This document shows positions 3,810 to 60,549 of a stretch of 64,000 nt of DNA, in pieces (position 1 is the first letter of the stretch; each line of letters begins with the position of its first letter). Made by a program: the position numbers and the translations under genes. Source of the stretch: Candidatus Campbellbacteria bacterium (GTDB lineage Bacteria > Patescibacteriota > Minisyncoccia > Phycocordibacterales > EsbW-18); NCBI GenBank assembly GCA_016699465.1, contig CP064977.1, positions 74,096-138,095 on the forward strand, given 5' to 3'. The notes beneath the pieces were generated by a model. That model did not search any database. It was not told where the DNA came from and worked only from the letters and a program-made list of their open reading frames with translations.

Positions 3810-3886
3810 AGTATATGTTCAAAATATTTTTTATTAAGAGACACCGTAGGGTATACAATACCACCACAGAAGTTGCTCTGTGGTGG

Positions 3887-4609
3887 TCACAAGATGGCAT
3901 TACGCCGTAGACGAAACCCTCTCCGTTGAAGATTTCTCTGAACCTGAGAGATTTCTTCGTGAGGAAGAACCATCATAACGGGGAACCGCACTTCTTGAGT
4001 GGTGAAAAGATCAAGTTCCATCGCGACGGTTATTTTTCCAGAGAGTGTTCCGAGTATGCTCGGCGCGAAGTTAAGTACTCGGAATCCTGCAATTGGATGT
4101 TCACCAAAAATTGGTGCAAACGTTTTGCACGGCAGGTCAATGGTTTCCATTCCAAGGTGTCCGAGGATACTTTTTTTCGAAAGAGGTCTCGTTTCTCGCC
4201 AGTCCTTCACAACGGAGAAATCGACCAAGAGGCACCATAACGTGTGTTCCGCAAGGAAACGTTGGACAGCCACTTCTTCTGAGTGTGCTGCAAGCTCTGT
4301 TTGTCGTTTACCATCGCGTGTTTGCCGACGATTTTCATACGAAAACAAAGCGTACCAGATTCGCCTAAATGGGAAACTGTTTAATCTTGCGTACTTTTCG
4401 ATTTGGTCCACAGAGAGTCGGAATCCATATGGGCTACGAAACCCCGAGGCTTTCACTTCGATTGATGTTTCTGACCGCCACAGACAGACGTCTCCGTTTG
4501 TGTCTTGTGTCAGATTTCCACCAAATATGTTATGCGCGAGTCGTTCGTAAAAGTTGCCGACTATGGTTTGTTTGTGTCCGAGAACAAAGGTCTCACCTGT
4601 GTCGCTCAT
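3887..4609 (-). CDS. hypothetical protein with possible PD-(D/E)xK nuclease-like motif
   Basis: 240 aa; GAGAGG SD 5 nt before ATG at 4609; motif GDVCLWRSETSIEVK fits D...ExK; GC content (about 48%) higher than flanking host genes. Confidence 0.5.
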   Translation of the reverse strand: MSDTGETFVLGHKQTIVGNFYERLAHNIFGGNLTQDTNGDVCLWRSETSIEVKASGFRSPYGFRLSVDQIEKYARLNSFPFRRIWYALFSYENRRQTRDGKRQTELAAHSEEVAVQRFLAEHTLWCLLVDFSVVKDWRETRPLSKKSILGHLGMETIDLPCKTFAPIFGEHPIAGFRVLNFAPSILGTLSGKITVAMELDLFTTQEVRFPVMMVLPHEEISQVQRNLQRRGFRLRRNAIL

Positions 4610-10565: not shown

Positions 10566-10979
10566 CTATCGGTGTTTTGCTGTGGCACAACGGCAACCGT
10601 ATGGTTTGATGTGTTCGTCAAAATATTCTTGCTGGTAGTCGTAGGAGAGCTCTTCTCCAATTTCAATTTTTCTTTTTGCAAAGATATACACACGCCCACG
10701 TCTAATATCTACTTCACAATTTGGTTTGCATGAGTGATTAATATAGCGTGCGGTATTTGTGCGTGAACTTCCATCAATAAACCGGCGCGAGTTTGTTTCA
10801 AACAAATATTTTCCGTTTATTGTGTCAGCGGTTTTTGCATCAACAATTCTTCCTGTGTATTCAATAATAAAACCCTTGCGCTCAATAGGTGCATCGGTGA
10901 ATAATCCTAAACCACTTTTGGAACGTTTAATACGTAATGCACGACGGATAGACCTGTATTTTTTGGGTAGTGGAAACAT
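10566..10979 (-). CDS. SET-domain protein (putative lysine methyltransferase)
   Basis: GxG...Y, NHSCxPNC and ELxxDY SET signature motifs in a 137-aa protein. Confidence 0.75.
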   Translation of the reverse strand: MFPLPKKYRSIRRALRIKRSKSGLGLFTDAPIERKGFIIEYTGRIVDAKTADTINGKYLFETNSRRFIDGSSRTNTARYINHSCKPNCEVDIRRGRVYIFAKRKIEIGEELSYDYQQEYFDEHIKPYGCRCATAKHR

Positions 10980-10990
10980 GGTGCGACTAG

Positions 10991-12208
10991 TTACTCAAAG
11001 ATGTCCCACATCTTCTGATCTTCGTTCCCATCAATCTTGAAGATGGCGACACCCGCAAGACCATATTCTCGAGCGAGATCCACTTTTTGTGCGATGGCCT
11101 CTGCGTCATTCCACGTTGCATAGTAGAACACTGATGGTAATCCTGTTGCGTGTGTGTACGCAAATGATTGCGCAGAAACTTTCAGTGCATCTGGGGTATC
11201 GTGTGGGATTGTTGTGTTGTAAGTAAATTGTGGTGCTGTTGTGATAGGGAAGAACGTAAAACTCAATTCTCCGGCGTTTCCGCGTATTGGTGTAACCTTG
11301 TACTGTTTTGCTGTTTTTATTCCGTAGGATGGATTGAATGCGCCAGTTTTTCCGTATTCTTGATATGTGTCGGAATGCACAATTACTTCGTACTCATGTC
11401 CGTACGTTGAAATGCCAAGAGATATTTTTTCTTTAGGAATACTTTGTAGTGTGAATTCTATCACCTTACGTACCCATGCTGGGTCTGATACGGGAATGTA
11501 CGCTTCGCCGGAATGTGTGTTGTTGAGTGTAAGATCCGCGCGTTGTTGATCGTAGGTCATTATATTTACACGATCACAGTATGTCGCGATTGCGGTGTAG
11601 TCATTTGCATACCGCAGGTCAGTTGGAATTGTTTTGTAGAGTGATTCTGGCGGCGTGCGTGCTTCAATAGTGCATGAGAGAATTTTATTTTTTCCGAGTT
11701 TATTCTTGAGTTCTTTAAGAAATAGTCCAAATGCTTCAAACGTCTCAGCACTTTTTCCTTCATAATCGATATCAACACCATCGAACTTCTGTTTTTGCAC
11801 CATTGTGGTAATGGCTTTGATGTGTTTGGTTCGTAACTCGGGAGTGCTCAACGTGGTGTAGATAGCGGATGTATTGCTCCACATTACTGTTGGAAGTATG
11901 TGTATATCTTTTTTGTGGGCGGACGAAAAAAGATTTTTCCATGCGCTTTTTTGAATTTTTCCAAGGTCAATAAGCGTACCGTCACTTTTCACTGAATAGT
12001 TGAATGGAAAGATGGTAGATAAGTCAGAGAGGTGTTTACGAGCGTCTTTGGTGCCGCTTGATACAGCCCAGTATGGAATCCATCCAGATACTTGGAGAGA
12101 GTCAGCGGCAAGAGTAAGGAGTGGTGTGGAAAAAAGAATAATAATGATGGCGCACAACCACAATGAAGTTGCACGTACAGGCTGTACGATTGTAGTAACG
12201 AGTTTCAT
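10991..12208 (-). CDS. secreted glycoside hydrolase family 18 (chitinase-like)
   Basis: Signal peptide, FDGVDIDYE catalytic motif of GH18. Confidence 0.8.
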   Translation of the reverse strand: MKLVTTIVQPVRATSLWLCAIIIILFSTPLLTLAADSLQVSGWIPYWAVSSGTKDARKHLSDLSTIFPFNYSVKSDGTLIDLGKIQKSAWKNLFSSAHKKDIHILPTVMWSNTSAIYTTLSTPELRTKHIKAITTMVQKQKFDGVDIDYEGKSAETFEAFGLFLKELKNKLGKNKILSCTIEARTPPESLYKTIPTDLRYANDYTAIATYCDRVNIMTYDQQRADLTLNNTHSGEAYIPVSDPAWVRKVIEFTLQSIPKEKISLGISTYGHEYEVIVHSDTYQEYGKTGAFNPSYGIKTAKQYKVTPIRGNAGELSFTFFPITTAPQFTYNTTIPHDTPDALKVSAQSFAYTHATGLPSVFYYATWNDAEAIAQKVDLAREYGLAGVAIFKIDGNEDQKMWDIFE

Positions 12209-12257
12209 ACGAGTAGTATACCGTATGAGCCAGTGATTCGTTACATGGGATAACAAA

Positions 12258-12285
12258 AAAACACCCGTGCGGGTGTTTTTTTGTT
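12258..12285. terminator. bidirectional terminator
   Basis: aaaaaaacacccg-tgc-gggtgttttttt palindrome flanked by A/T runs. Confidence 0.65.
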
Positions 12286-12286
12286 A

Positions 12287-12670
12287 TTATTTCTTGGTAG
12301 TTTTTTTTGCTGGTTTCTTTTTTGCTACTGGTTTTTTTGTAGCAACTTTCAATTCTTTTGAAATATTTTTCCAGTGACCTTTAAGTTCTGTAACAAATGC
12401 TTGTACATCTTTTGGATCAAGCTTCTGGAGTTTTTTGTAGCGCTCCGCGACTTCTTTAATTGTTGTGTGGTATCCTTTCTCGCTTATTGCAGAAGCCTGT
12501 TTAAGTTCTGCTACAACGTCCTTTTTTGCTTTTACAGACCACGCCTTAACTACAGCGCGGTTCTTTTTGGCATCCTTCGATGCATAGAAAAAGTATGTTC
12601 CAGCTGCTGCGGCTGCGAGTGCGGCGATACCTGTTCCAACGGCTACTTTGTTAGTTGTTGTTTTTTTCAT
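12287..12670 (-). CDS. hypothetical Lys-rich protein with N-terminal TM segment
   Basis: 127-aa ORF, basic C-terminal tail. Confidence 0.5.
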   Translation of the reverse strand: MKKTTTNKVAVGTGIAALAAAAAGTYFFYASKDAKKNRAVVKAWSVKAKKDVVAELKQASAISEKGYHTTIKEVAERYKKLQKLDPKDVQAFVTELKGHWKNISKELKVATKKPVAKKKPAKKTTKK

Positions 12671-12743
12671 GTGTGATTTTGCGAAATCATATTACGTAGC
12701 GTCGATTGTTACGTGGCTGAGATCGCGATAAACTTTGTGGTTA

Positions 12744-23632: not shown

Positions 23633-23713
23633 TTTAATCAAGAAATTTAAAAATGTACCGATATATCGGTACATTTTTGTTATGGACTAATTCGCGCGAA
23701 TAGGAGAATAGTC

Positions 23714-24047: not shown

Positions 24048-24656
24048 TTAGCGTCTATTAGTAAACGCGCTTTTAATGGTGTCGGCATCGGAATATTCAA
24101 GTTCAGTTCCTGTGGAGAGTCCGCGTCCGAGCATGGAGATAGTAATACCGTTTTCAGTGGTGATAGGTAAGAGAAGTGACTTCACGTGGTCCGCGGTCAT
24201 TTCACCCTCAGGATGTGCTCCTGTGGCGATAATGATTTCTTTGAGGTTTTTGATATTTTTTTGCACGTACTTCGTGAGCTCGTCTGTTTTAAGATTTGAT
24301 GGTGTTGATTCAAGAAGGGGAACGGTTCCTCCAATGACAAAGTAGTGACCGTTGTATGCGTGTGTTTTTTCAATGGCGTCTAGATCGGCATCTTTTTCAA
24401 CCACCATGAGTAGGTGTGTGTCCCGGTTTGGAGATGAACAGATATCACAGACCTCGGCGTAGCCATCTGCATCAAAGAAGCGGTGGCACTGCGCACAGCG
24501 TGAAATAGACGCTTGGAGTTCTTCAATACGCTCAGACAAACTTTTCACAAATGCCTTGTCTTGGGTAAGGAGAAAGTGCACGAAGCGTTTTGCTTGTCGT
24601 GGTCCGATGCCTGGAAATTTTTGAAAGTATTCAGCTAGTTTTTGTATCGCGTTCAT
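24048..24656 (-). CDS. recR: recombination protein RecR
   Basis: MNAIQKLAEYFQKFPGIGPRQAKR HhH N-terminus, C4 zinc finger (CxxC...CxxC), Toprim region; ORF-track start 24743 is an upstream extension. Confidence 0.9.
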   Translation of the reverse strand: MNAIQKLAEYFQKFPGIGPRQAKRFVHFLLTQDKAFVKSLSERIEELQASISRCAQCHRFFDADGYAEVCDICSSPNRDTHLLMVVEKDADLDAIEKTHAYNGHYFVIGGTVPLLESTPSNLKTDELTKYVQKNIKNLKEIIIATGAHPEGEMTADHVKSLLLPITTENGITISMLGRGLSTGTELEYSDADTIKSAFTNRR

Positions 24657-24694
24657 CTTGTACAGTTTAACAAATTTTGATCCACTATGTGTTT

Positions 24695-24722
24695 CTTGAC
24701 AGAAAAAATGTGCGGTATATAA
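24695..24722 (+). promoter_or_regulatory. consensus sigma70 promoter (TTGACA-16-TATAAT) reading towards tRNA-His
   Basis: Perfect -35 and -10 hexamers; followed by a roughly 430-nt ORF-poor leader before tRNA-His. Confidence 0.5.
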
Positions 24723-25153
24723 TGTTTGTAGATTACATTTCAAACGCGTTTATACAGTGGAATAGTAGGAAGTCTTAGTATGGTTTGAGCGAGTTCGGGA
24801 TAGTGTGAGCCGAACCCTGAAGAGATTTTTGAACACGTCACTGGAGCGGTTAGTGAAAAAGCCCAGCAAAGAAGTAGGGCACAAGCTAGACGGTGGTCAC
24901 ACATCGTGAATCTGTAAATTAAGTGTCCGGATATCCTGCATAAGGAGTTCGGGAAAGAGGATGGAACCGCGGGTAGTCATATCTAAAGACTCTCGTTCCT
25001 TTTGTATCGTCGTATATGACGGTGCACAGGGAATGGGAGTTTTTTGCGTTTATGAAAGGAGAAACGCATGGGCTTCACACGAACCCGTCGTTCTTTTGGC
25101 GGAGCAGGTCCGCACTAACAACCTGTACGGAGAGATAATCTCTCCGTACACAT

Positions 25154-25227
25154 GGTGTCTGTAGCTCAATTGGTAGAGCGCTTCTCTGTGGCAGAAGTGG
25201 TTGCGGGTTCAAGTCCCGTCAGACACC
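25154..25227 (+). tRNA. tRNA-His (anticodon GTG) with genome-encoded G-1
   Basis: Acceptor gtgtctg/cagacac preceded by extra G (G-1), anticodon loop cuGUGgc, T-arm gcggg-ttcaagt-cccgt. Confidence 0.9.
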
Positions 25228-25229
25228 CT

Positions 25230-26177
25230 ATGAGCTATAAAAGTAAAAAACAAAAAAATACGCTCAGAAATCGCATTGGTAATAAGATGCGAACATTTAG
25301 AATTGTTCTTTCAAGACTCGCACAGAACGTGCGGTCTCAGCTCAAAGGTCGAAAGGAAAGCAAAATGTCCCTACCACAGACGAGAAAGGTCATGGCATTT
25401 CTTCGAGATGAGGCTCGGCGTATTCGACCCAACAACAAGAGGATTGACGAATGGGTCGATGAACTTCTCGAGCAGTGTGCTCGAGACGGAAAGCCGGTAG
25501 ACGTACTCACCCAGTGGTGTCTGTCGAAAGATCTCGAAACTCGGAAAATACAACAAGGAGGTCGACTTTCACCCCTTCCTTCCGAGAAGAAGATGATCCT
25601 TGAGGCAATTCCGCGCATTATTGATGTTTTCACCAGTAATGGCTTTCGAGTCAACTGGTGGTTCACATTCAACAAGGCGTTTGTGGACGAGGGGCGGGTG
25701 TCTGATGCATTGGTCGTCGAGTATATCAATCTCATCAGTGCCCTCGTTTCCCAAAATGAGGCAGTGCGCGAAAGTGGTATTCTTATCAACTGGGAGGAAG
25801 AAGTGCTCCAAGGTCGACAACAGCCAAATAGAGAAGTTATGGAAGATTTCTTTCGGTACATTCCGAGGGGCGCGTTTGATATCGAGATGAAAAATCTCCT
25901 TCGACGCGTCCAGAAGTACCCCAACTTTTCAAAGTCAGTTGCCGAGCTCGAGGTAGAAAAGAAGTACAACATTGCTTGTGAGGTGGGGGAGGGGAAGTTT
26001 CTCCTCGGCGAGCAATCGCCGTTTTCCAAGGGAGAGTTTCTCCTCATTCCATTTGAATTTCCGGAGCGGTACGGATTTTTCGAGATACTAGCTCCAGGGT
26101 TTCAACGTCGTATTGCTGCAGTACTTAAACCATACCCATGGCGCATAGATGCCGACGATCTGGTGTATGAATCGTAG
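25230..26177 (+). CDS. hypothetical protein (cassette 1), start uncertain
   Basis: ORF immediately after tRNA-His; the track start at 25152 lies inside the tRNA; GC rises to above 55%. Confidence 0.5.
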   Translation: MSYKSKKQKNTLRNRIGNKMRTFRIVLSRLAQNVRSQLKGRKESKMSLPQTRKVMAFLRDEARRIRPNNKRIDEWVDELLEQCARDGKPVDVLTQWCLSKDLETRKIQQGGRLSPLPSEKKMILEAIPRIIDVFTSNGFRVNWWFTFNKAFVDEGRVSDALVVEYINLISALVSQNEAVRESGILINWEEEVLQGRQQPNREVMEDFFRYIPRGAFDIEMKNLLRRVQKYPNFSKSVAELEVEKKYNIACEVGEGKFLLGEQSPFSKGEFLLIPFEFPERYGFFEILAPGFQRRIAAVLKPYPWRIDADDLVYES

Positions 26178-26192
26178 CGGTTCGCACACATA

Positions 26193-26226
26193 AGGCCCGC
26201 TTCGTTTAACACGAAGCGGGCCTTTC
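26193..26226 (+). terminator. terminator hairpin
   Basis: aaggcccgcttcg-tttaaca-cgaagcgggcctt 13-bp stem. Confidence 0.55.
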
Positions 26227-26231
26227 TCTAA

Positions 26232-26268
26232 TAGTATTCAACTAGTTTTTGGATTGCATTCATAAATT
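26232..26268 (-). pseudogene. recR 5'-end remnant (11 codons MNAIQKLVEYY then stop)
   Basis: Reverse complement atgaatgcaatccaaaaactagttgaatac closely matches the true recR start atgaacgcgatacaaaaactagctgaatac; its ATG overlaps the TGA of the 108-aa gene (ATGA). Confidence 0.6.
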
Positions 26269-26586
26269 TTCAAGTGGATAGACGTCGAAGGCAACTTCTT
26301 CGTATGGGTGTACTGATTTCATCGCCGAAATAATATCAAGCATTTTCTCTCTTTCGCAGACAAATTCAATTCGTTCTTCTGGTACAGATTCTAATGTACC
26401 AACTTCACCTATTGCTGGACGCGCTCCGTCTTCAGGTAGAAATCGTCCGGTTCCTTTTGATGAAAAGGTACAGAATGAATAGTTGCCAATTTTTCCTGCG
26501 CCTGCTTTACCTACAGCATCACGAACAACATCGGCGTGTGATTCAGGAACGAACACAACGATTTTTAGTTTTTTTGTTTGAGACAT
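26260..26586 (-). CDS. small alpha/beta protein; C-terminus HPYEEVAFDVYPLE is CutA/PII-like (weak)
   Basis: 108-aa ORF, GC-rich; translationally coupled (ATGA) to the recR-like remnant. Confidence 0.5.
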   Translation of the reverse strand: MSQTKKLKIVVFVPESHADVVRDAVGKAGAGKIGNYSFCTFSSKGTGRFLPEDGARPAIGEVGTLESVPEERIEFVCEREKMLDIISAMKSVHPYEEVAFDVYPLENL

Positions 26587-26632
26587 GCGACTATTTTAGC
26601 AGATTTTTAGGGCTATTTGGGGTAACTTGACA
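26587..26632 (+). repeat. cassette-array repeat, copy 1 (46 bp promoter-proximal part ending in TTGACA)
   Basis: gcgactattttagcagatttttagggctatttggggtaacttgaca; same sequence at 28286-28332 and 29046-29091. Confidence 0.85.
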
Positions 26633-26656
26633 AGTGGTAATAATATATAGTATAAT
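26627..26656 (+). promoter_or_regulatory. sigma70-like promoter TTGACA-18-TATAAT for cassette 2
   Basis: The -35 box is contributed by the repeat; the -10 box by unique cassette sequence. Confidence 0.55.
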
Positions 26657-26719
26657 ATCTAACAGAAGCTCATCACCAGATCAGCCGTAATGGTTGGTCA
26701 AAACCGAAGGAGAAAAATC

Positions 26720-27256
26720 GTGAAGAAGATTTTCTCATTTGACGCCGAGACCAACGGACTCTGGGGACAGGCGTGGGCGATCGGCGCCCTCGTCTACGAC
26801 GAGAACGGCGTTGAAATTGCCCGATTCGTCGGCCGTCTGCCGGACTCGGCGGTGACCGACTCGTGGAGCCGGGAGAACACTCTGCCCCAGGTGCAGGGAA
26901 TCCCGGTGACCCATGAGGACTACGACTCGCTTCTCGCCTCGTTCGCCGACTTCTACAAGGCGAACAAGGACGGAGCCGACGTCGTCGTGCACATGGGGTA
27001 CATCGTGGAGGCGAAGATTCTTCGTGATCTCCACGATCGCGGCCTTATCGGCGACTGGGAGGGGCCGTACCCGCTCTACGACGTCAGCGGAAACCTGCAG
27101 GCCGCTGGTGCGGACCCCACCTCGGTGGACAAGTTCGCGGACGAGCGAGGTCTTCAGGTGGGAGTGGGTACCGACATCGTCGGAGGAACCCACAATCCGC
27201 TCTGGGATTCTGCCGCCGCGGCGGCAGTCTACCGCTACTTGGTCTACGACAAGTAG
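26720..27256 (+). CDS. DEDDh-family 3'-5' exonuclease (DnaQ/RNase T-like)
   Basis: AAGGAG SD 7 nt before GTG 26720; motif I FDAETNGL, motif III HNPLWDSAAAAAVY (H-x4-D); GC about 62%. Confidence 0.8.
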   Translation: MKKIFSFDAETNGLWGQAWAIGALVYDENGVEIARFVGRLPDSAVTDSWSRENTLPQVQGIPVTHEDYDSLLASFADFYKANKDGADVVVHMGYIVEAKILRDLHDRGLIGDWEGPYPLYDVSGNLQAAGADPTSVDKFADERGLQVGVGTDIVGGTHNPLWDSAAAAAVYRYLVYDK

Positions 27257-27296
27257 CAACGTGGGAGTTTGAGAGGACTCCGTCAACAAAACCTCT

Positions 27297-27346
27297 CCCA
27301 TCGTAGAATGTGTGTTCTACCCGATGAGTCCAAAAGGACGAAATGG
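27297..27346 (+). ncRNA. hammerhead-ribozyme-like motif (type III topology) with U4-to-C deviation; speculative
   Basis: cccaUC | GUAGAA-ugugug-UUCUAC | CCGAUGA | GUCC-aaaa-GGAC | GAAA | UGG: 14 of 15 core positions and all three stems present. Stem III is only 4 bp and competes with an upstream hairpin (gugggag/cucccau). Confidence 0.2.
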
Positions 27347-27364
27347 TTTGTTCTTTGAGAAAAT

Positions 27365-27420
27365 TCTTTCGGTTATCTCAGTGTTTGTGATTTGAAGAGA
27401 GCGTTGAGATAACCGAAAGA
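27365..27420. promoter_or_regulatory. perfect 16-bp-stem hairpin immediately upstream of the SD of the 27435 gene
   Basis: tctttcggttatctca ... tgagataaccgaaaga, exact reverse complements; A-run after, T-rich before. Confidence 0.5.
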
Positions 27421-27434
27421 AAAAAGGAGATACT

Positions 27435-28148
27435 ATGCAAAGGAAAAAAATTGAAGTGAAGAAAGGGAAGTACGCCTTTCTTGTTGACGGACTCAGAAAA
27501 GAGCCCATCAACTTTCTGCGGCATGAGCCGCTGAATGAGATTGAAATCTTACTTGGCAAGGGAGCCAAGAGTGTCGAGTACTACGGCACTTTCGGGGGAG
27601 AGGACGGGGTTCTCCTTCTAGTAGTTGAAGTGTCGTCGGATGGACCAGTTATCACAGAAGGTGGTAATCTCTTCGCGTTCTGCAAAGGGTGCGGAGAACT
27701 CATTCGGAGCGAGCACGGGTGTGTCAGAGGGTCTGATGAACCGTGCAAGGAGAAGTTCCGGTCGGGAACAAGCTTTCTCACCGCCCCGCTGGATCACCCT
27801 TGTGCCGCTCTCTACCACGCGGCACAGGACGGAAAGTTCTTGGTCGGGATTGACAACCCGATGCGAGTTCCAGATGTGCCGAGTTGGGTCTTGATTCAAA
27901 ACAGAAAGACCCACGGCGGTGGTCACCATTATCACTGGTTTGGTCGCTCTGGACTTAGTCCAGAGGGTCTCGCAGACTTCTTTCGGAGGCATCCTGCCAG
28001 TGACGCCGAAGTATCTCTCGAAGGAGAGGTTGTGGTGGTCAAATCATCACAACTCGGACCGTGGATTGGTTCGAGTGGACGTTGGGCGAAGGCCTACCAA
28101 CGTCTTGGAATTCGAGTTCAGTTTCGACCAGTTGTAGCCACCGCCTGA
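27435..28148 (+). CDS. hypothetical protein (cassette 2, second gene) with CxxC/His clusters
   Basis: AAGGAGA SD; 237 aa; GC about 58%; no family recognised. Confidence 0.55.
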   Translation: MQRKKIEVKKGKYAFLVDGLRKEPINFLRHEPLNEIEILLGKGAKSVEYYGTFGGEDGVLLLVVEVSSDGPVITEGGNLFAFCKGCGELIRSEHGCVRGSDEPCKEKFRSGTSFLTAPLDHPCAALYHAAQDGKFLVGIDNPMRVPDVPSWVLIQNRKTHGGGHHYHWFGRSGLSPEGLADFFRRHPASDAEVSLEGEVVVVKSSQLGPWIGSSGRWAKAYQRLGIRVQFRPVVATA

Positions 28149-28332
28149 TGAAACACGGGAGACCGCGCTTTCATCAGGCGGTTTTCTTATTTTTATTTTT
28201 TGAATCTACTCCACTATTCGCGCGAATTAGAGAATGGTTTTTTGGAGCTTTTGAAAGTATTCAGTTAGTTTCTGAATTGTATGCATGCGACTATTTTAGC
28301 AGATTTTTAGGGCTATTTGGGGTAACTTGACA
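28141..28332 (+). repeat. cassette-array repeat, copy 2 (terminator hairpin + recR-5'-like segment + TTGACA)
   Basis: About 93% identical over about 190 bp to 28903-29091; hairpin ccgcctgatgaaa...tttcatcaggcgg plus T-run acts as terminator for the upstream gene. Confidence 0.85.
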
Positions 28333-28408
28333 AAACAAATTATTTTTGCTAAAAAACAGATAGAACACAACATACGCTACTTGGCGTATGAACTTTTGGA
28401 GAAAAATC

Positions 28409-28885
28409 ATGAAACTGTTCCGAGGTGTGCTTATCGTCTTGACGGTAGCGTTGGTTTTCCAGGCCCTTCTCACTGTCTACAAGCATCACAAAAAGGCGGA
28501 GCAGCTGGAGAGGTTTGTGGCCGCAGAAGCGTTGGACGCGGCCGCCTCACTTGCAAACGCTCTGGAAGCCACTTATTACCAGGACGGAGGACTCGATTCT
28601 GTTGTGACCACGTGTGCCTCATCGGAGATCACCTGGACGAAGACGACACACGGGGAGTTCACAACCCGATGCAACGTCACCGGAGATTTCTACGACCCGG
28701 ACACGTACAAGACGATTACGGACGGAAAAGACACAATCCTTCCAGTGAGTCTTTTCACGAGAGTCGACGAGAGGATGCTCGTTCGACTCAAGGATGGTTG
28801 GAGGTTGCGGAGCGCCACCCTTACAGTGCTCGCGGAAGACGCCCGAGGTCGGGTGCTTGCCAAGGCGAGCAAACACCTTCGGTAG
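28409..28885 (+). CDS. hypothetical secreted/membrane-anchored protein (cassette 3)
   Basis: GGAG SD 7 nt before ATG 28409; signal/TM LFRGVLIVLTVALVF; GC-rich. Confidence 0.5.
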   Translation: MKLFRGVLIVLTVALVFQALLTVYKHHKKAEQLERFVAAEALDAAASLANALEATYYQDGGLDSVVTTCASSEITWTKTTHGEFTTRCNVTGDFYDPDTYKTITDGKDTILPVSLFTRVDERMLVRLKDGWRLRSATLTVLAEDARGRVLAKASKHLR

Positions 28886-28902
28886 TGGGCATTCAATCTC
28901 TG

Positions 28903-29091
28903 CCGCCTGACAGACACGGAAAACCGCGCTTTGTCTGGCGGTTTTCTTATTTTTATTTTTTGAATCTACTCCACTATTCGCGCGAATTAGAGAATGGTTT
29001 TTTGGAACTTTTGAAAGTATTCAGCTAGTTTCTGGATTGTATGCATGTGACTATTTTAGCAGATTTTTAGGGCTCTTTGGGGTAACTTGAC
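28903..29091 (+). repeat. cassette-array repeat, copy 3
   Basis: Hairpin ccgcctgacagac...gtctgtctggcgg carries compensatory substitutions relative to copy 2; ends in TTGACG -35 with TATACT -10 17 nt downstream. Confidence 0.85.
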
Positions 29092-29164
29092 GTGGGACGA
29101 TTTATGACTTATACTTTTTACGGAACCGAACGAAAGAACAACTTCGACTCAGGAGGCCGAGACA

Positions 29165-29494
29165 ATGGCGACTCAAGGGGTGGTAAGTGTCGTGAAGAAC
29201 GGGGTGGTGGTGCTCAAGGTTGTCGCAGGCTGCGATGGTTACAACGCGGCCCTGCTCGGCAACACGATTCGGGGAATGGGAATCATTCCAGATGCGGAGA
29301 ACGCCTACGACCTGGCGTTCAAGCTCCGTTTCGGCGAGGTCGAGTGCCTCGTCGCGATGGACCAGAGGACCGAGGTGTTTCGGGGTCACGACGAGATCGA
29401 CTCGACGAGGTATCGAGCCACCTTCAGCGACCCGCGCTTCAACCCAAGGTGGGAGCAGGGAACCGCCGACTTCGTGGAGGTGGTCGAGTTCTAG
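29165..29494 (+). CDS. hypothetical protein (cassette 4), 109 aa
   Basis: GGAGG SD; GC about 62%; antisense ORFs rejected. Confidence 0.5.
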   Translation: MATQGVVSVVKNGVVVLKVVAGCDGYNAALLGNTIRGMGIIPDAENAYDLAFKLRFGEVECLVAMDQRTEVFRGHDEIDSTRYRATFSDPRFNPRWEQGTADFVEVVEF

Positions 29495-29528
29495 AATCAA
29501 CACGATGACCCAGAACGAGCTGAACTAT

Positions 29529-29660
29529 ACCGTCTGACAAACACGGAAAACCGCGCTTTCATCAGGCGGTTTTCTTATTTTTATTTTTGAATCTACTCCA
29601 CTATTCGCGCGAATTAGAGAATGGTTGCCGGGGAATTTCTGAAAATATTCAGTTGTCTTA
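29529..29660 (+). repeat. cassette-array repeat, copy 4 (degenerate)
   Basis: Terminator hairpin plus ttgaatctactccactattcgcgcgaattagagaatggtt shared with copies 2 and 3, then a diverged recR-like segment (gaatattttcagaaattcc). Confidence 0.7.
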
Positions 29661-29732
29661 ATTAAATTTTACAAAAAGAAACCGCCTCGTCTGGGAACGG
29701 GACGGTTCCATGTGACGGGGCGGGGGCAGGTG

Positions 29733-30212
29733 CTACTGCGGGGTTGGGAGCGAAATTGGCGCAGTTCGGTTGACCTGCATCGTGCGGCGCATCCACCACT
29801 CGTCCAGGATGATCTGGACCATACCGCGCTCTCGCTTGCCCGCGACCATTTGCGCTATGGGTGCGAGTGTTCGAATGTCGCGGTGTTCGCGCTGGCCGTC
29901 GGACCACTCGATGAGTACCTCTGTGAACGACGGGTTGTGCTCGTAGCGATCCACGACCCAGAAAATCTCATTGTAATCGGTGATGCAGGTGGCGGGAAGC
30001 TCGACGGTTTTGAGCAGCTCCAGCATCTGCTCTTCGTGCACCTTGCGCTCTGTCGCGGTTCGCGCCTCTTCGGCGTCGGCGGACTTGGAACCAGACGTGT
30101 CCCCGATGAGCATGAAAAGGCTGAAGACGATGATGCATCCGAGGATGAACCCGAAAACGAGGTTCATCCGTTTCGCTGACATGAACTCTCTCTCAGTAAA
30201 GAGGCGCTCCAT
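29733..30212 (-). CDS. hypothetical membrane-anchored protein, GC-rich
   Basis: Own promoter TTGACT-17-TATCAT at 30258-30286 (minus strand) and GAGGAGG SD. Confidence 0.5.
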   Translation of the reverse strand: MERLFTEREFMSAKRMNLVFGFILGCIIVFSLFMLIGDTSGSKSADAEEARTATERKVHEEQMLELLKTVELPATCITDYNEIFWVVDRYEHNPSFTEVLIEWSDGQREHRDIRTLAPIAQMVAGKRERGMVQIILDEWWMRRTMQVNRTAPISLPTPQ

Positions 30213-30298
30213 GTTGAACCTCCTCGGCCGATGGCCTGTAGGTACGTATTTTCTGGAGAGGATGATACTATAAAATCACAAAAAAGTCAACTGACAAA

Positions 30299-30679
30299 TT
30301 ATTCGAGGATATCAGGAATATGAGAACGGGGAACTTTGCGAACATTTACTTTCTCCATTTTTAGAATTGACGCTTTCATGAGGCGGTGTAGTCCGTCTAA
30401 GATTAGCCAACGGCCTTTATTCTCCATAATGTCTATTGGATGTATGAGGTCTGCGTTCATGGTGCGCTCGTACTCTTCTTTGTGCGCGTCAGGATTGGTC
30501 AGGACTTCCTGGGGCGTAAGATTATAGACGCCGTTTTCCCAAAGGAATGGAATATCGAAGTGCCATGTAAGTTCGCTGGTAGGTATTTCTTCAACAGGGA
30601 CATCAAGAGCCCACACCTTTGGTTCACTCCAATCAAAATCAAATCCAACGTCTTTAATTATTTGTGGAATATCACCCAT
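30299..30679 (-). CDS. hypothetical protein with ParB/Srx-like DGxHR motif (ILDGLHRL)
   Basis: 126 aa; motif typical of the ParB-like nuclease superfamily; assignment weak. Confidence 0.4.
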   Translation of the reverse strand: MGDIPQIIKDVGFDFDWSEPKVWALDVPVEEIPTSELTWHFDIPFLWENGVYNLTPQEVLTNPDAHKEEYERTMNADLIHPIDIMENKGRWLILDGLHRLMKASILKMEKVNVRKVPRSHIPDILE

Positions 30680-30750
30680 GTTCTGATTATTTTTGTATTA
30701 TATAAAAAAGTGCCTGACTCCATTGTCCACATTTTTTATTTCGCACATCG

Positions 30751-31485
30751 TTAAAGTACCCCTTTGTTTTGCAATTCCATTACAAAAAACTTACCTTTTT
30801 CACTGAAATCAATTGTCAGCTGTCCGCCCACTTTATCTTTTCGTATAAGTCCTATAACGTCAAGTTTTGAGAAGTAATTAGGATTTAAGTATTCATCGTA
30901 CGGATGAGATGGGCTTGTCGAGTATTTACCGCCATATTGATAAATAATTTGGTTTGCTTTTTTGAGTGCCTCAATATTTTCGGGGTTATAAGAGAATTTT
31001 TTTAGTTCATCCAACCAAGCGACCATGGGATTGCTTTTTTTTATTTGTTTTTCTTGCTTAGTTGTTTTTGCAACCACCTCAATTTTTTTTGCGCGCTGTT
31101 CTTCGAGTGCAGTTTTTTCTTCCTCAATCTTCCTTTTTTCTAGAATACTTATGATAGTTTTTTTTGACTCATACTCCTCATTTTTTCTGTGTGCTTTTAT
31201 AAGAAACAATTCAGGAAATGTCCAAATTACTAAAAATGTTAATAAGAAAGGTAGCGCCCAAAGGCAGACGCTTATTATAGGATGTGTAGGATCTAATAAA
31301 AGATTCTGAAGATATTCTGTTTTTAAAAGTCCTTTAGATTCCCAGATTTTTTCCTCACTTAGAAAGAAAAGAGCAACCATAAATTTCCAATGGATGATTA
31401 TGGAAGATATTAGAAGTGTCCCATAAAATGGGCTTGAAAATCTCTGCTCGACCATCTTTTTTATTGATTCAAAAATTTCTGTCAT
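30751..31485 (-). CDS. hypothetical membrane protein with coiled-coil segment
   Basis: ORF-track start 31830 would overlap dnaB; first in-frame ATG after dnaB stop is at 31485. Confidence 0.5.
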   Translation of the reverse strand: MTEIFESIKKMVEQRFSSPFYGTLLISSIIIHWKFMVALFFLSEEKIWESKGLLKTEYLQNLLLDPTHPIISVCLWALPFLLTFLVIWTFPELFLIKAHRKNEEYESKKTIISILEKRKIEEEKTALEEQRAKKIEVVAKTTKQEKQIKKSNPMVAWLDELKKFSYNPENIEALKKANQIIYQYGGKYSTSPSHPYDEYLNPNYFSKLDVIGLIRKDKVGGQLTIDFSEKGKFFVMELQNKGVL

Positions 31486-31495
31486 GTTTTTGTTT

Positions 31496-32923
31496 CTAAA
31501 ACTCCGCACTTGTTCCTTGAGCGGAAGCGTCGAATTGCTCAACACCGTGGCGTTCAAGTGAACGGAAGGTGGCTTTCTTGTCGTCAAAGTAGAGTTCGAG
31601 CACACCCGTTGGACCGTTACGGTGCTTGGCGATGATGAGTTCCACAATGTTTGAGCGCTCACCAGCTTCTTTGTAGCGGTCTTCACTGTGAATAAACATA
31701 ACCAAGTCAGCGTCCTGTTCAATAGAACCAGAGTCACGAAGGTCGGAGAGTTGTGGTCGTCCACGGCGCTGTTCAATGGCACGTGAAAGCTGTGAGAGGG
31801 CAACGACAGGCACGTCGAGCTCGCGGGCAAGCTGTTTCAGTGAGCGGGAAATTTCGGTCACTTGTTGCACCATGTTGTCTTGCTGGCGGTTTTTACCTGA
31901 TGGAACCATGAGCTGGAGGTAGTCTACAATGATGAGGTCGAGACCTTGCTCACTCTTGAGACGGCGGGCAACAGAGCGCATTTTCAAAATGTTGTTGCCC
32001 GCCTGGTCGTCGATGAATATTTTTGCTTGCGAGAGTTTGTTTGTGGCATCACTAATGCGTTCAAATTCGTCGTCGGTGGAAAGTTTTCCTGTGCGCAAAC
32101 GCCACGCATCCACTTGTGCCTCTGATGCAAGCATGCGGTCTACTAATTGCTGTGCACTCATTTCAAGAGAGAAGATACCAACGGATTTGCCGTAGCGAAT
32201 AGAGGAGTGGCGTGCAATGTCCAATGCGAGGGACGTCTTTCCCATGGAAGGTCGTGCGGCGAGAATGACGAGGTCTGCTTTTTGAAGTCCTGCGATTTTG
32301 TTGTCCAACTCTGGAAAACCTGTTGGCACACCGCGGAGTGTTCCTGAAGATTTTTGCAATTTGTCCAAGCGTTCAAACGCATCGGCGAGCACGTCACTGA
32401 TGGGAATAAATTTCTTTGTTCCTGGGGCAGACGTGATGTTGTAGATTTGCTTCTCCGCTTTATCAAGTAACTCTTCCAACTCTTCTTCTTCGGCAAAGCC
32501 GAGTTCGGTGATGTGGTAGGCGGCTTCAATCAACTGGCGCATCGTGTACTTCTTTTGCACAATTTCAGCGTAGTGCTTTGCGTTCATGGATGAGGGCACC
32601 GTGTCCACCAAGCCAGTGAGGTAGCTCATGCCACCAACCGTCTCTATTTCTTTGAGTTCTTTGAGTCGAGAGGAGAGTGAAACAAGATCAATCGGTTCTC
32701 CTTTTTTGTAGATGTCGAACATCGCGGAAAAAATAATTCCGTGTTTGCGTGCATAAAATGATTCTGCTGAGAGAATATCAATGACGTCGTGCACTGCTTC
32801 AGGACGCAACAAAATAGAACCGAGAAGTGCTTTCTCTGTCTCCACATCTGATGGTGGTGTGCGAACTGGTTTTGTTTGAGGGTGAGTTGCCATGAATATC
32901 TGCATAGTAGCATACGAAAACAA
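31496..32923 (-). CDS. dnaB: replicative DNA helicase DnaB
   Basis: Walker A GARPSMGKTSLAL, DnaB N- and C-terminal domains; exact start (TTG 32923 or ATG 32893) uncertain. Confidence 0.9.
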   Translation of the reverse strand: MFSYATMQIFMATHPQTKPVRTPPSDVETEKALLGSILLRPEAVHDVIDILSAESFYARKHGIIFSAMFDIYKKGEPIDLVSLSSRLKELKEIETVGGMSYLTGLVDTVPSSMNAKHYAEIVQKKYTMRQLIEAAYHITELGFAEEEELEELLDKAEKQIYNITSAPGTKKFIPISDVLADAFERLDKLQKSSGTLRGVPTGFPELDNKIAGLQKADLVILAARPSMGKTSLALDIARHSSIRYGKSVGIFSLEMSAQQLVDRMLASEAQVDAWRLRTGKLSTDDEFERISDATNKLSQAKIFIDDQAGNNILKMRSVARRLKSEQGLDLIIVDYLQLMVPSGKNRQQDNMVQQVTEISRSLKQLARELDVPVVALSQLSRAIEQRRGRPQLSDLRDSGSIEQDADLVMFIHSEDRYKEAGERSNIVELIIAKHRNGPTGVLELYFDDKKATFRSLERHGVEQFDASAQGTSAEF

Positions 32924-47019: not shown

Positions 47020-48420
47020 CTACTCTTTTTTCTTTAAAACGGACAATCCAAGATCTCTCAAAACAATTGGATCAATTGGTCCCGGAGCATGCATGACGGC
47101 GGTCTTTCCTTTTCCTGTCATAGGAAACGCCTGCACTTCGCGCAGGTAGGATTCACCTGTGGCAATCATGACACCGCGTTCAATACCCAATCCAATACCA
47201 CCGTGTGGAGGAACTCCGTGTGAAAAAGCCTCAAGCATGTGGCCTACACTGTCTTTAATTTGCTCAGGTGTGTACCCCATGATTTTGTACGTTGCCTCAA
47301 GAATTTCTGGTCGGTGTGCACGAATACTTCCCCCTCCTGTTTCAAATCCGTTACAGACGAGGTCATACTGCTGTGTGACAATGTTTTCAATGTTTTCACC
47401 CTTCATGTGTGATTCGAGGTGATCTTCTCGTGGCATTGAAAAAGGGTTGTGGGTAAATGTCCATTTGCCGTCGTCGGTTTTTTCAAAGAATGGAAAGTCA
47501 GTTACCCAGGCGTACGCAAGAATCCCCTTCTCTTTTTCTTCTGGTGTGCGCATATCAAACTTATCTGCACCATACGTTTTCATGGCTTCTGCATAGGTGA
47601 TACGTGGAAATGGTTTTTGTTTGATGGTCTTACCCAAACTTTCCATGACAAAGGTAATCATACCTTCGATGGTATCCATGACTTCGTCACGTGTGACGAA
47701 TGACATTTCAAAGTCGAGTTGTGTGTGTTCATATCCACGGTCGGCACGAAGGTCTTCATCACGCACACATCGTGCAAGTTGAAAATACTTTTCAAAACCA
47801 GAAGTCATTAAGAGTTGCTTGTACTGTTGTGGTGATTGTGGCAATGCATAAAAGTTTCCTGGGGCGTGACGAGATGGTACTAAGAAGTCACGAGAACCTT
47901 CTGGTGTTGATTGTGTGAGGAGTGGTGTTTCGATTTCAACAAATCCCTGCTTAAACAAGTATTCACGACACTTCTGCACAAACTCACTTCGGATGCGAAT
48001 ATTTTTTTGCATGCGGGCAGAGCGGAGGTCTACATATCGGTATGCTAGTCGCGTTTCCTCATTGAGTCCCATGGTGTCTTGTGTCAAATCAAACGGAGGA
48101 GTCGTTGCTTCTGCAAGAACGGTAATTGATTCAGCGACACACTCGAGTGCACCGTTTTGTTCACCTTCATTGACAAGATTATCAGGACGTTTTTTGATGA
48201 GTCCTGTAAGTGTGATAACCCATTCAGACCTAAGAGTGTTTGCGACAGCGAGTGCCTCGGCATTTTTAGGCGTTACAACCACCTGCACCTTCCCGGTCTC
48301 ATCACGAACATCAATAAAAATAAGCTTTCCATGGTCGCGTCGTACGGAAACCCAACCTGCAATCGTAATACTACTGTCAATATGTTTTTCGAGGTCTTGT
48401 ATGTAAATACGGTTTTTCAT
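47020..48420 (-). CDS. aspS: aspartate--tRNA ligase, short form without GAD insertion domain
   Basis: Class-II motifs including FRDEDLRADR and GGIGLGIER-like; 466 aa. Confidence 0.9.
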   Translation of the reverse strand: MKNRIYIQDLEKHIDSSITIAGWVSVRRDHGKLIFIDVRDETGKVQVVVTPKNAEALAVANTLRSEWVITLTGLIKKRPDNLVNEGEQNGALECVAESITVLAEATTPPFDLTQDTMGLNEETRLAYRYVDLRSARMQKNIRIRSEFVQKCREYLFKQGFVEIETPLLTQSTPEGSRDFLVPSRHAPGNFYALPQSPQQYKQLLMTSGFEKYFQLARCVRDEDLRADRGYEHTQLDFEMSFVTRDEVMDTIEGMITFVMESLGKTIKQKPFPRITYAEAMKTYGADKFDMRTPEEKEKGILAYAWVTDFPFFEKTDDGKWTFTHNPFSMPREDHLESHMKGENIENIVTQQYDLVCNGFETGGGSIRAHRPEILEATYKIMGYTPEQIKDSVGHMLEAFSHGVPPHGGIGLGIERGVMIATGESYLREVQAFPMTGKGKTAVMHAPGPIDPIVLRDLGLSVLKKKE

Positions 48421-48512
48421 ATGTGTTCAAGTATATAGGTTTTGTGCCCATTTCCAAAGAGGATAAAGTAACCTAAAAAATGTAAAACCGCCGGACCTTT
48501 CTCAAGGCCGGC
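48277..48512. repeat. 236-bp direct repeat, copy A (aspS 5' end and its upstream terminator)
   Basis: Identical except 1 nt to 52349-52584. Confidence 0.9.
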
Positions 48513-48546
48513 GGTCAGAATCACGGTAGTTCCTCAGTACCGTGAC

Positions 48547-52348: not shown

Positions 52349-52584
52349 AACCACCTACACCTTCCCGGTCTCATCACGAACATCAATAAAAATAAGCTTT
52401 CCATGGTCGCGTCGTACGGAAACCCAACCTGCAATCGTAATACTACTGTCAATATGTTTTTCGAGGTCTTGTATGTAAATACGGTTTTTCATATGTGTTC
52501 AAGTATATAGGTTTTGTGCCCATTTCCAAAGAGGATAAAGTAACCTAAAAAATGTAAAACCGCCGGACCTTTCTCAAGGCCGGC
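52349..52584. repeat. 236-bp direct repeat, copy B
   Basis: See copy A. Confidence 0.9.
52352..52489 (-). pseudogene. aspS 5' fragment (46 codons then stop; duplicated with the repeat)
   Basis: Encodes [45 protein letters not shown] then TAG where real aspS continues. Confidence 0.8.
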
Positions 52585-52662
52585 GGTCGAAACCATAACG
52601 GTTTCGCAGTACTGTGGTTAGCTGTGGCGACTAAAAACTGCAATCTGCAAGTAAACCGAAAT

Positions 52663-53310: not shown

Positions 53311-53336
53311 CTCTCTCCCCCCTTTTTTCTAAAAGG

Positions 53337-60393: not shown

Positions 60394-60549
60394 ATGTGAT
60401 TGAGTACAATCATGCCGTGAGGCCGATGTAACAAAATTAGATTATTACGTGACCTCATTCTAGCACTTTTTGTAAGAAAAGTTTTTAATTTCAAAAATGT
60501 AAAGAGCCCCAGCAACTGTGCTGGGACTCGGATGTCCGAATGCGTCGGA
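60394..60549. repeat. 156-bp terminator+promoter+5'UTR module, copy A (upstream of tspO)
   Basis: About 95% identical to 63315-63465; contains hairpin cccagca-actg-tgctggg, extended -10 TGcTAGAAT (minus strand) and GTAACA-N9-TGTTAC palindrome. Confidence 0.85.

Follow-up and report, generated by a model that had tools for sequence, protein, structure and literature searches.

A tandem array of GC-rich gene cassettes separated by recR-like regulatory modules at the dnaB-recR junction of a Candidatus Campbellbacteria genome

Among the closest described counterparts of the locus reported here are the promoter-early stem-loops (PeSLs) of T4-type phages, regulatory cassettes that are mobile (Arbiol et al. 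2010, PMC2839356; Comeau et al. 2014, PMC4122927) and for which a route of homologous exchange between motifs, giving minicircles, has been proposed and partly demonstrated (PMC2839356, PMC4122927). A second counterpart is promoter propagation, in which near-identical regulatory regions, or putative mobile promoters, stand before unrelated genes of one genome and are proposed to activate those newly acquired (Matus-Garcia et al. 2012, PMC3488235). Our subject is the dnaB-recR interval of Candidatus Campbellbacteria, where 6.8 kb of DNA, mostly GC-rich foreign genes, has been inserted and where those genes are punctuated by copies of a regulatory module that resembles a recR locus without its coding body. 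The interval lies in a stretch of 64,000 nucleotides, hereafter the window (contig CP064977.1, positions 74,096 to 138,095, assembly GCA_016699465.1), from an organism of groundwater/wastewater with a tiny genome; all positions without a handle are those of the window, and handles such as L001 denote loci in other genomes and contigs. Bacteria of the Candidate Phyla Radiation (CPR, or Patescibacteria) have tiny genomes with few recognisable mobile elements, and their acquisition and expression of foreign genes are not understood. The architecture is that of PeSL-like regulatory cassette shuffling, or of tandem island accretion, set in a CPR chromosome and built from housekeeping-gene stubs. 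The pattern recurs across CPR genomes and is apparently undescribed; its mechanism we infer.

Other systems also gather small genes at one place. Tandem integrative islands (tRNA/dusA-type 5'-end integration; tycheposon-like) insert serially at a conserved gene and leave displaced target stubs, and the pdif (XerC/D) modules of Acinetobacter plasmids are small recombinase-less modules bounded by a 28-bp 11-6-11 site. Homology-facilitated illegitimate recombination, insertion-duplication in naturally transformable bacteria and the minimal mobile elements of Neisseria all acquire genes through a conserved anchor beside a hypervariable site, with alternative cassettes between conserved flanks as the outcome. 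As a rule all of these exchange one cassette for another instead of stacking them, and none is known to produce ordered arrays that have repeated regulatory modules.

On the plus strand the locus reads, in order, recR upstream region with its promoter, T-box leader, tRNA-His, orf270, module A, an exonuclease gene, orf237, module B, orf158, module C, orf109, a truncated module D, an inverted orf159 unit, orf126 and orf244; the insert amounts to five or six self-contained transcription units. Its borders and modules are:

24048..24656, minus strand: recR, resident and intact (Pfam RecR_HhH, Toprim_4, RecR_C; 97% amino-acid identity to that of L001)
31496..32905, minus strand: dnaB, opposite border of the hot spot (tblastn against 30 relatives)
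24657..24723, plus strand: resident recR upstream region (U0), consensus promoter 12/12
26192..26224, plus strand: terminator hairpin of unit 0, unlike the hairpins of B to D in sequence (fold -26.5 kcal/mol, z = -7.1)
26223..26263, minus strand: recR 5' stub A (MNAIQKLVEYY, then a stop), resident recR type, 76% identical to resident recR nt 1-41
26587..26632, no strand: upstream element (U) copy A, ending in -35 TTGACA (26627-26632), 47/47 identical to copy B
28138..28332, no strand: module B, complete; hairpin 28140-28182, T-rich spacer, box 28216-28235, stub, U
28246-28286, antisense: recR stub of module B (MHTIQKLTEYFQKLQKTIL, then a stop); its U at 28287-28332, with -35 at 28327
28898..29092, no strand: module C, complete; hairpin 28902-28942, box 28976-28995, stub 29006-29046
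29047-29092, no strand: U element of module C, -35 TTGACG at 29087
29525..29660, no strand: module D, truncated; hybrid hairpin 29529-29570, box 29603-29622, partial recR stub to ~29660
23690..23712, no strand: resident box copy (ATTCGCGCGAAT core) at the 3' end of the recR-orf88 unit, adjoining the rplU/recR convergent terminators

The module opens with an intrinsic terminator, a hairpin followed by a U-tract, and continues through a T-rich spacer, a palindromic box and the first ~17 codons of recR in antisense to a U element of ~45-46 nt that terminates in a -35 hexamer, TTGAC(A/G). The -10 boxes fall in unique cassette DNA, each cassette bringing its own -10, leader and ribosome-binding site (RBS). 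An earlier note on this DNA had proposed both this layout and the supply of the -10 by the following cassette, and both hold. The direct repeats on which it was founded lie far beyond chance, a 37-nt core of U occurring three times against 0.00 expected and the repeat families standing at 28138/28898/29525 and 26565/28265/29025; within the window, module sequence is confined to the recR locus. Its statement that every cassette ends in the same module is true in full of B and C. Module D is interrupted within its recR stub (stub at 29627) and has no U, while module A lacks the box and is split, a distinct terminator (26192-26224) and a 41-nt stub being parted from U copy A by orf108. The spacer of about 50 bp that the note described is indeed conserved, and it contains the palindromic box (ACTATTCGCGCGAATTAGAGAATGG in the modules), which had not been singled out.

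Within the modules, similarity is uneven. The folding energies of hairpins B, C and D are -30.1, -23.1 and -16.6 kcal/mol, respectively (z = -7.3, -4.7 and -4.0), and the stem of C is altered on both sides relative to B. It is the copy at 28903, and not 'copy 3', that has the compensatory changes claimed earlier; the one at 29529, hairpin D, is a hybrid with a C-like left arm and loop, a B-like right arm and two mismatches. Between B and C the T-rich spacer and box are 100% identical (59/59), the stub 93.5%, U 91.5% and the hairpin 80.5%; hairpins are 80-83% identical among modules, and U copy A, which matches B at every one of 47 positions, is only 91.5% identical to C. The identity within modules is mosaic, as would be expected from homologous exchange.

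A box and terminator also stand at the 3' end of genuine recR units, after orf88 in the window (23690-23712) and in L005 and L045, where the box lies directly after the recR stop and ~60 nt after it, respectively. Because the arrangement in the module matches that of real recR units, the module is to be read as a recR locus with its coding body deleted, a 'mini-recR locus' in which the 5' end of recR is fused to the recR 3' flank. Modules B, C and D have the same recR-deletion junction, D retaining a few extra recR-like bases. The lineage from which the module derives is not that of the resident gene: in B and C both stub and U (ATGCATACAATTCAGAAACT…) are of the type seen at the start of recR in L002 and L003 and are unlike the resident/L001 type (ATGAACGC…), to which stub A belongs, and U0 matches the upstream element of the module at only 59% identity, its promoter (TTGACA-16-TATAAT, 24696-24723) being directed away from recR. 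The ends of the repeats coincide with functional signals, the -35 hexamer and the terminator stem, and no conserved core was seen at them outside those signals.

What the array does is readable, on the evidence of these signals, with more assurance than how it arose, its origin being a matter that we infer. In each module the terminator would end the upstream cassette, the single ArsR-type operator box would follow, and U would supply the next cassette's -35 and probably also an UP-like context from the recR-upstream element. The unit promoters (12/12, 10/12, 10/12 and TTGACA-17-TAAAAA) include the match of 12/12 at 26627, completed by the cassette's own TATAAT, that of 10/12 at 29087 and TTGACA-17-TAAAAA at 28327. 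The view of the locus as one of cassette accretion, in which each foreign gene has its own promoter and terminator, survives this dissection.

Set beside the PeSLs, the array has the same composite of a stem-loop terminator and a strong sigma-70 consensus promoter, repeated intergenically; PeSLs flank ORFans in a hyperplastic region, and ORFans and a hot spot are found here too; no dedicated recombinase is evident. PeSL motifs also bound indels and replacements between relatives, and motif-bounded replacement was seen here only in another CPR lineage (L042/L143). The differences are that this is a bacterial CPR chromosome and not a phage; that PeSLs are a genome-wide motif family whereas these are locus-specific duplications of a neighbouring housekeeping gene (recR, aspS, pepE); that the module, of 150-270 nt, bears a gene stub and an ArsR-type operator and separates GC-rich foreign cassettes; and that minicircles, which belong to the PeSL model, would be hypothetical here. 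In contrast to promoter propagation, the copies stand in tandem, include the terminator as well as a stub of a gene, and mark the bounds of arrayed foreign cassettes.

The likeness to integrons, or to clusters of attC sites lacking integrases (CALINs), lies in small genes, mostly unknown and with no relation to one another, that are arrayed in one direction with a recurring structured element between them and no adjacent integrase. It is nevertheless not an integron, as the earlier note had also concluded: no integrase is visible in the 64 kb and nothing in it is attC-like, there being no IntI and no R''/L''-L'/R' sites. The junctions read ...GGGGTAACTTGAC(A/G) on one side and CCGCCTGA... on the other, with no GTTRRRY or RYYYAAC, and the hairpin is a terminator with a U-tract. 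The repeat, moreover, derives from a housekeeping gene, and whereas integron cassettes are mostly promoterless and driven from Pc, here each has a promoter and terminator of its own.

Composition sets the cassettes apart from their host. Against a GC content of 44% for the window, the array open reading frames (ORFs) from 26720 to 30212 stand at 53-63%, and their GC content at third codon positions (GC3), 0.53-0.81, compares with 0.33-0.44 in the window's host genes and 0.66-0.86 in its other GC-rich genes; the order GC3 > GC1 > GC2 over codon positions confirms their reading frames. The GC-rich block of about 5 kb described earlier is thus borne out for those ORFs, but 25229-26600 lies at 40-49% and the modules are AT-rich. 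The four cassettes then named are all present, and an inverted GC-rich unit makes a fifth: orf159 (29733-30212, minus strand), with its own promoter and terminator. The cassettes are foreign genes and form part of a mobile CPR gene pool.

That the array is an assembly artefact, made by joining GC-rich foreign contigs at the repeats, is scarcely credible. Short-read assemblies do break at the modules, L151 having its ends within U and immediately beyond hairpin B; yet L151, a separately assembled Logan short-read contig from another pipeline (though perhaps from the same sample), is 100% identical to 26604-28191 and so reproduces both AT-rich/GC-rich junctions of cassette 1. The modules differ among themselves (80-100% by segment), relatives and other CPR genomes likewise contain single GC-rich genes behind AT-rich consensus promoters, and the locus tags IPJ70_00575 to IPJ70_00590, which include orf237 (IPJ70_00580) and orf109 (IPJ70_00590), all lie on one 811-kb contig.

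A RecR scan of 185,579 species genomes yielded 30 Patescibacteria loci for comparison. Twenty or more of these relatives keep the order cysS-dnaB-recR, then convergent rplU, with dnaB ending 20-150 nt before recR and no insert; in others the content of the interval differs completely, in support of the earlier reading. L001, whose RecR is 97% identical, has a single divergent gene, GC-rich and equipped with a terminator and a TTGACT-17-TATAAT promoter of its own, L002 a PemK-like gene, MazG and two GC-rich genes, L003 MazG and two GC-rich genes, and L005 a single AT-rich gene. The cassette proteins of L001 and L003 are 57% identical, and the recR-proximal cassette of L002 ends in a hairpin homologous to that of the module (80% over 55 nt). 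No recR stub occurs in the interval of the insert-bearing relatives L001, L002, L003 and L005, nor any tRNA between dnaB and recR in L001-L007. By these comparisons the content of the interval turns over, the stub-bearing array being so far unique to this genome; the contigs listed by the metagenome scan described below have the 30-45-nt box and in no case the 190-nt module. In L001, the closest relative, the recR-rplU gap (10612-12548) holds three extra genes, one histidine-phosphatase-like, one MutT-like and one GC-rich and 153 aa long, which makes the 3' side of recR a second variable site.

Two further duplications of the same kind lie in the window:

48277..48544, minus strand: second locus, proximal copy; terminator, aspS promoter and first 144 nt of intact aspS
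52349..52616, minus strand: second locus, distal copy; same terminator and promoter with a truncated aspS stub (52349-52492)
60394..60549, minus strand: third locus, copy 1; terminator and promoter/5' untranslated region ending exactly at the TspO start codon
63313..63468, minus strand: third locus, copy 2; same module before a pepE-like gene, ending exactly at the start codon

The aspS duplication is a direct repeat of 268 nt, about 240 of them identical; its proximal copy is preceded by GC-rich orf393 (48547-49728) and its distal copy, which stands upstream of DoxX, an ABC transporter and orf393, by GC-rich orf134 and orf215 (52663-53797). The pepE/TspO repeat spans 156 nt at 94-98% identity, and its first copy follows GC-rich orf255 (60563-61330, 67% GC). 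Neither has the box, and neither is related in sequence to the recR module. Their presence in the same window means that the process is not specific to recR; to judge by these loci and those in other CPR genomes, a 'terminator + promoter (+ 5' stub of next gene)' has been duplicated recurrently where foreign genes adjoin, without tie to recR. Elsewhere, locally repeated intergenic modules lie between cassettes in L154 (115 nt) and L159. That of L159 is a ~215-nt structured repeat (1592-1811 and 3793-4007, 94.5% identical) that ends at the next gene's RBS and start codon, in a GC-rich island of exonuclease, 649-aa helicase-like and 489-aa genes within a 34% GC genome. As a separate observation, L157 has ~119-nt intergenic modules at 7623-7741 and 8053-8171 (91% identical).

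It is here that the earlier claim of 'site-specific' targeting of the recR 5' end and promoter gives way. The aspS and pepE/TspO duplications do not share its sequence; the module is not a simple target duplication, the recR 5' end being joined to the 3' flank and coming from another recR lineage; and the repeat ends are functional signals with no conserved core outside them, in a mosaic of identities. A wider form of the idea, which we consider unlikely, has small integrase-less elements mobilised in trans, by a recombinase encoded elsewhere, and entering the 5' end or promoter of recR, aspS or pepE by site-specific recombination, each carrying a replacement 5' end and promoter, in the manner of dusA- or tRNA-targeting islands, so that displaced stubs accumulate. 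Like target-stub islands, the locus does have stubs of the target gene's 5' end at each junction (recR 5' stubs at 26223, 28246, 29006 and 29627; aspS stub at 52349-52492), and these come from different recR lineages, as if the elements brought copies of their own; the hybrid form of hairpin D could be the trace of a crossover within the conserved loop; and in L163 (5680-6427) an orf109 homologue occupies a 668-bp segment between 21-nt direct repeats of a tRNA-Gln 3' end (5739-5759 and 6407-6427, 90% identical), with no integrase nearby. Unlike such islands, however, the array has no integrase or excisionase remnants, its units measure no more than 0.6-1.7 kb, the stub is joined to the 3' flank of its own gene, a fusion that replacement of a 5' end does not predict for B to D, and the three targets in 64 kb have no common core. 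No integrase turned up in the 64 kb (by regex only) or in any cassette, the aspS repeat is ~100% identical over 240 nt where a short core with diverged arms would be expected, and the exonuclease cassette occurs elsewhere (L152, L157) without flanking duplication.

The array ORFs gave no recombinase match in Pfam, PHROGs or NCBIfam, and an H-x-x-R-[HKRY]-[ST] motif was absent from window ORFs of at least 90 aa, a regex screen that is a weak test. Insertion of the IS200/IS605 type 3' of TTGAC was considered and dropped: neither a left-end hairpin nor TnpA/TnpB is present, and in cassettes located at unrelated sites the promoter role of TTGACA accounts for it. An island targeted to tRNA-His was rejected, the 3' end of that tRNA being unrepeated anywhere in the window.

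A different account dispenses with serial gain. A foreign block acquired once would have been subdivided by local copying of a terminator-promoter module, selected for expression and insulation. The duplicated module is always placed to drive the next gene (the pepE module at the TspO ATG, the aspS module before DoxX-ABC-orf393), and 'putative mobile promoters' have been recorded across many prokaryotes (PMC3488235). Even so we think such propagation in situ improbable. The cassettes are not neighbours elsewhere and their distributions differ widely: the exonuclease has >540 homologues in CPR at 65-83% identity, orf109 has 44 at 36-56%, and orf237 is an ORFan with one distant homologue among 5.8 billion proteins, which makes acquisition as a single block unlikely. 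The stub of the module comes, besides, from a foreign recR lineage, and no mechanism for the copying is known.

The box can be followed well beyond this genome. Its 12-nt palindrome ATTCGCGCGAAT occurs four times against 0.11 expected, and a metagenome scan for ATTCGCRCGAATTAGAGAAT returned at least 120 contigs of 32-58% GC that have only the 30-45-nt box in common with the window module. By far its most enriched neighbour encodes an 88-aa ArsR-family protein (HTH_5, above the Pfam cutoff), found at 35 of the 120 listed loci; in nearly all 35 the box lies 10-50 nt upstream of that gene's start, often overlapping a -10, which is the signature of an autoregulatory operator. The box is probably the operator of this autoregulator, widespread in CPR metagenomes; no homologue of the 88-aa protein is encoded in the window. 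About 30% of boxes fall within long ORFs (e.g. NifS-like, MurD-like) with protein length unaltered, and the box precedes or follows many small ORFs, ten boxes separating such ORFs over 4 kb of L051. Full-text searches of the literature yielded nothing on the box, nor on arrays of this kind in CPR. The 28-32-nt palindrome (…ATTCTCTAATTCGCGCGAATTAGAGAAT…) is dispersed over very diverse CPR contigs (L031-L150).

The box had first been read as an Xer/dif-like site or a repetitive extragenic palindromic (REP)-like element, and this was dropped after the enrichment and position analysis. In the Xer version, which we now regard as very improbable, the units would be cassettes like dif modules, moved by the host Xer recombinase: the perfect box, ATTCTCTAATT-CGCGCG-AATTAGAGAAT, fits an 11-6-11 arrangement, and besides the ten-box array of L051 several contigs have 2-4 boxes. 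That reading is countered by the position of the box before the ArsR-family gene wherever the two are listed together, with few exceptions, and by the absence of a box from module A and from the aspS and pepE modules. Similarity between units also runs past the box, in the window (~80 nt on one side, ~105 nt on the other) and in L042/L143, and in distinction from pdif modules the 28-nt palindrome appears to behave as an ArsR-family operator, with unit boundaries elsewhere. In L042 and L143, which are related contigs, the flanks are 89-100% identical and different ORFs lie between two modules of box and promoter; the conserved part stops at a -35-like hexamer and resumes at the terminator.

The best explanation in our judgement, put forward tentatively, is homology-driven insertion-duplication followed by shuffling through the modules. 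DNA from related lineages would bear a different cassette beside the same anchor, the 5' end of recR with its upstream region. One-sided homology would then allow either Campbell-type insertion-duplication of circularised fragments or minicircles, by a single crossover, or homology-facilitated illegitimate recombination; integration would add a cassette rather than replace one and would leave the anchor duplicated. Once two modules existed, RecA-type exchange could excise, add, swap and homogenise units, and a dedicated integrase would be unneeded. The array would then be a chromosomal counterpart of the PeSLs, following their logic. Such homology-anchored acquisition is the most economical account because there is no recombinase signal and no common core across three loci, because the stub comes from a foreign lineage, and because module identity is mosaic, hairpin D is a hybrid and a cassette has been replaced between L042 and L143. 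A search of viral contigs gave no match to the box or to U, which indicates that the module is not phage-borne.

Several points weigh against it. The 190-nt module was not found in a second genome, the metagenome scan matching the box only, and both circles and recombination between modules are, for this organism, supposition. The recR-deletion junction common to B, C and D means that the first module would have needed an illegitimate event that cannot be reconstructed. Three cassettes ending exactly at the -35 and the terminator stem are tidy for a purely homology-driven process; such boundaries would call for pre-formatted donors, that is similar arrays elsewhere, or for strong selection on expression. 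Natural transformation delivers single strands, from which circularisation is not an obvious route. Lastly, the arrangement in L163 looks like an att duplication, classical site-specific integration around a single gene.

A bolder proposal, to which we attach little weight, is that of an undescribed general gene-capture system in Paceibacteria-type CPR: GC-rich pool genes, possibly phage-derived, would be inserted at the borders of housekeeping genes with local duplication of a 'terminator-promoter-5' stub', through a 115-270-nt target duplication or a trans-acting recombinase reading terminator hairpins, and placed under a common ArsR-type repressor acting at the 28-nt box, the whole being an integrase-less, self-insulating analogue of the integron.

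At the recR locus, its two sister loci and similar CPR loci, single genes of foreign composition each come with a strong terminator and a consensus promoter of their own and are stacked beside essential genes, and the duplicated regulatory modules would keep the neighbouring housekeeping gene expressed. The locus thereby shows how tiny genomes may stack and express borrowed genes with no visible integrase. If homology drives it, the PeSL idea of the 'mobile regulatory cassette' would extend from T4-type phages to bacterial chromosomes, and naturally competent, recombinase-poor symbionts would have a concrete route of gene gain; if a dedicated enzyme is involved, this would be a new cassette-capture system. 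The widespread ArsR-type box offers a way into a regulon of accessory genes that spans CPR.

The genes and other features carried in the insert are:

24740..25003, plus strand: T-box leader, His specifier (GAA-CAC-G), first element of unit 0 (Rfam RF00230, 65.5 bits, E = 4e-14)
25155..25228, plus strand: tRNA-His (GUG), within the inserted DNA
25365..26177, plus strand: orf270, ORFan, payload of unit 0 (49% GC, GC3 0.52)
26260..26586, minus strand: orf108, 108 aa, host-like GC (41%), between stub A and U copy A
26720..27256, plus strand: cassette 1 gene a, DEDDh 3'-5' exonuclease, 178 aa (63% GC, GC3 0.80; GTG start 26720)
27435..28148, plus strand: cassette 1 gene b, orf237, ORFan; stop codon within the left arm of hairpin B
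28409..28885 (alternative start 28388), plus strand: cassette 2, orf158 (56% GC; predicted N-terminal membrane/signal segment)
29165..29494, plus strand: cassette 3, orf109 (61% GC, GC3 0.81)
29682..30290, minus strand: inverted unit, orf159 (29733-30212, 58% GC), promoter TTGACT-17-TATCAT (30290-30262), terminator 29723-29682
30299..31485, minus strand: orf126 (ParB/SbnI-like, PHROG 17560) and orf244 (33% GC), AT-rich accessory genes

The identification of the first gene of cassette 1 as a DEDDh exonuclease, already made in the earlier note, is strengthened. Residues D8, E10, D87, H158 and D163, the DEDD acidic residues and the H-x4-D motif, are invariant, and an AlphaFold model (predicted local distance difference test, pLDDT, 91) gave Foldseek probability 1.00 to T4 DexA, RNase T and oligoribonuclease (Orn), so that on residues and modelled fold the protein, with its GTG start at 26720 and 178 aa, belongs to the family. 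Pfam did not detect it and sequence searches of the PDB came back empty, the fold search alone matching. Its best match is a 99%-identical Candidatus Campbellbacteria protein, IPJ70_00575, on the 811-kb contig. The family stands at ~59% GC within genomes of 34-44% GC, each copy has its own consensus promoter, and between copies the coding sequence alone is conserved; elsewhere the gene sits in a corA/hrcA gap (L152), beside tRNAs and rpmG (L154) or adjoining TspO (L159).

In L157 (4600-7100) the exonuclease and a 274-aa gene lie inside the spc ribosomal operon in the opposite orientation, between rplE and an uncalled rpsN (Z-type S14), and a TTGACA promoter in divergent orientation points towards rpsN-rpsH, as though transcription of the interrupted operon were restored by the insert. 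A motif (…ATTCGCATCAATTCG…TATAAT) stands immediately upstream of several ribosomal-protein gene starts there (3073, 4604, 8030), and the intergenic spacers, ~100 nt, are unusually long for a ribosomal operon.

The stop of orf108 overlaps the ATG of recR stub A (ATGA), and its first seven codons (ATGTCTCAAACAAAAAAACTAA) resemble the start of the recR stub (ATGCATACAATTCAGAAACTAA; 26565-26586 against 28265-28286), which suggests a past insertion of orf108 into the beginning of a recR gene, with fusion of the two. A homologue adjoins the box array in L042. Neither orf270 nor orf158 has a family match in Pfam, PHROGs or NCBIfam. The match of orf126 to ParB/SbnI-like proteins and PHROG 17560 is weak, the other island ORFs having no match in Pfam, PHROGs or NCBIfam, and orf126 and orf244 are, like the cassettes, missing at the dnaB-recR site in relatives. 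An orf109 homologue of 43% identity is carried by L165 (1-12357), a 150-kb contig of 68% GC with >30 tightly packed small ORFs without Pfam match, beside a DnaB-like gene; L165 is phage-like, and possibly represents a high-GC donor pool for cassettes.

Further isolated GC-rich genes lie in the window at 48547-49728, 52663-53310, 53393-53797 and 60563-61330 (56-67% GC), one encoding a phosphoribosyltransferase-domain protein and the others ORFans. The aspS-type and pepE-type terminators have a common tail, TTTACATTTTT, with four matches, all in modules, against 0.25 expected; this hints at related cassette terminators, on two independent occurrences only. An intergenic repeat family of 46-55 nt (…GATTGTTACGTGGC), 67-74% identical, occurs at 12672-12717, 58984-59029 and 59943-59988.

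At the head of unit 0, the T-box leader scores 65.5 bits in Rfam, where the gathering score is 93. Between it and the tRNA-His(GUG) gene, which has an encoded G-1, stand a hairpin and a short ORF. A T-box (specifier codon CAC) ahead of a tRNA gene, and not of an aminoacyl-tRNA synthetase or biosynthesis gene, is unusual; orf270 then follows.

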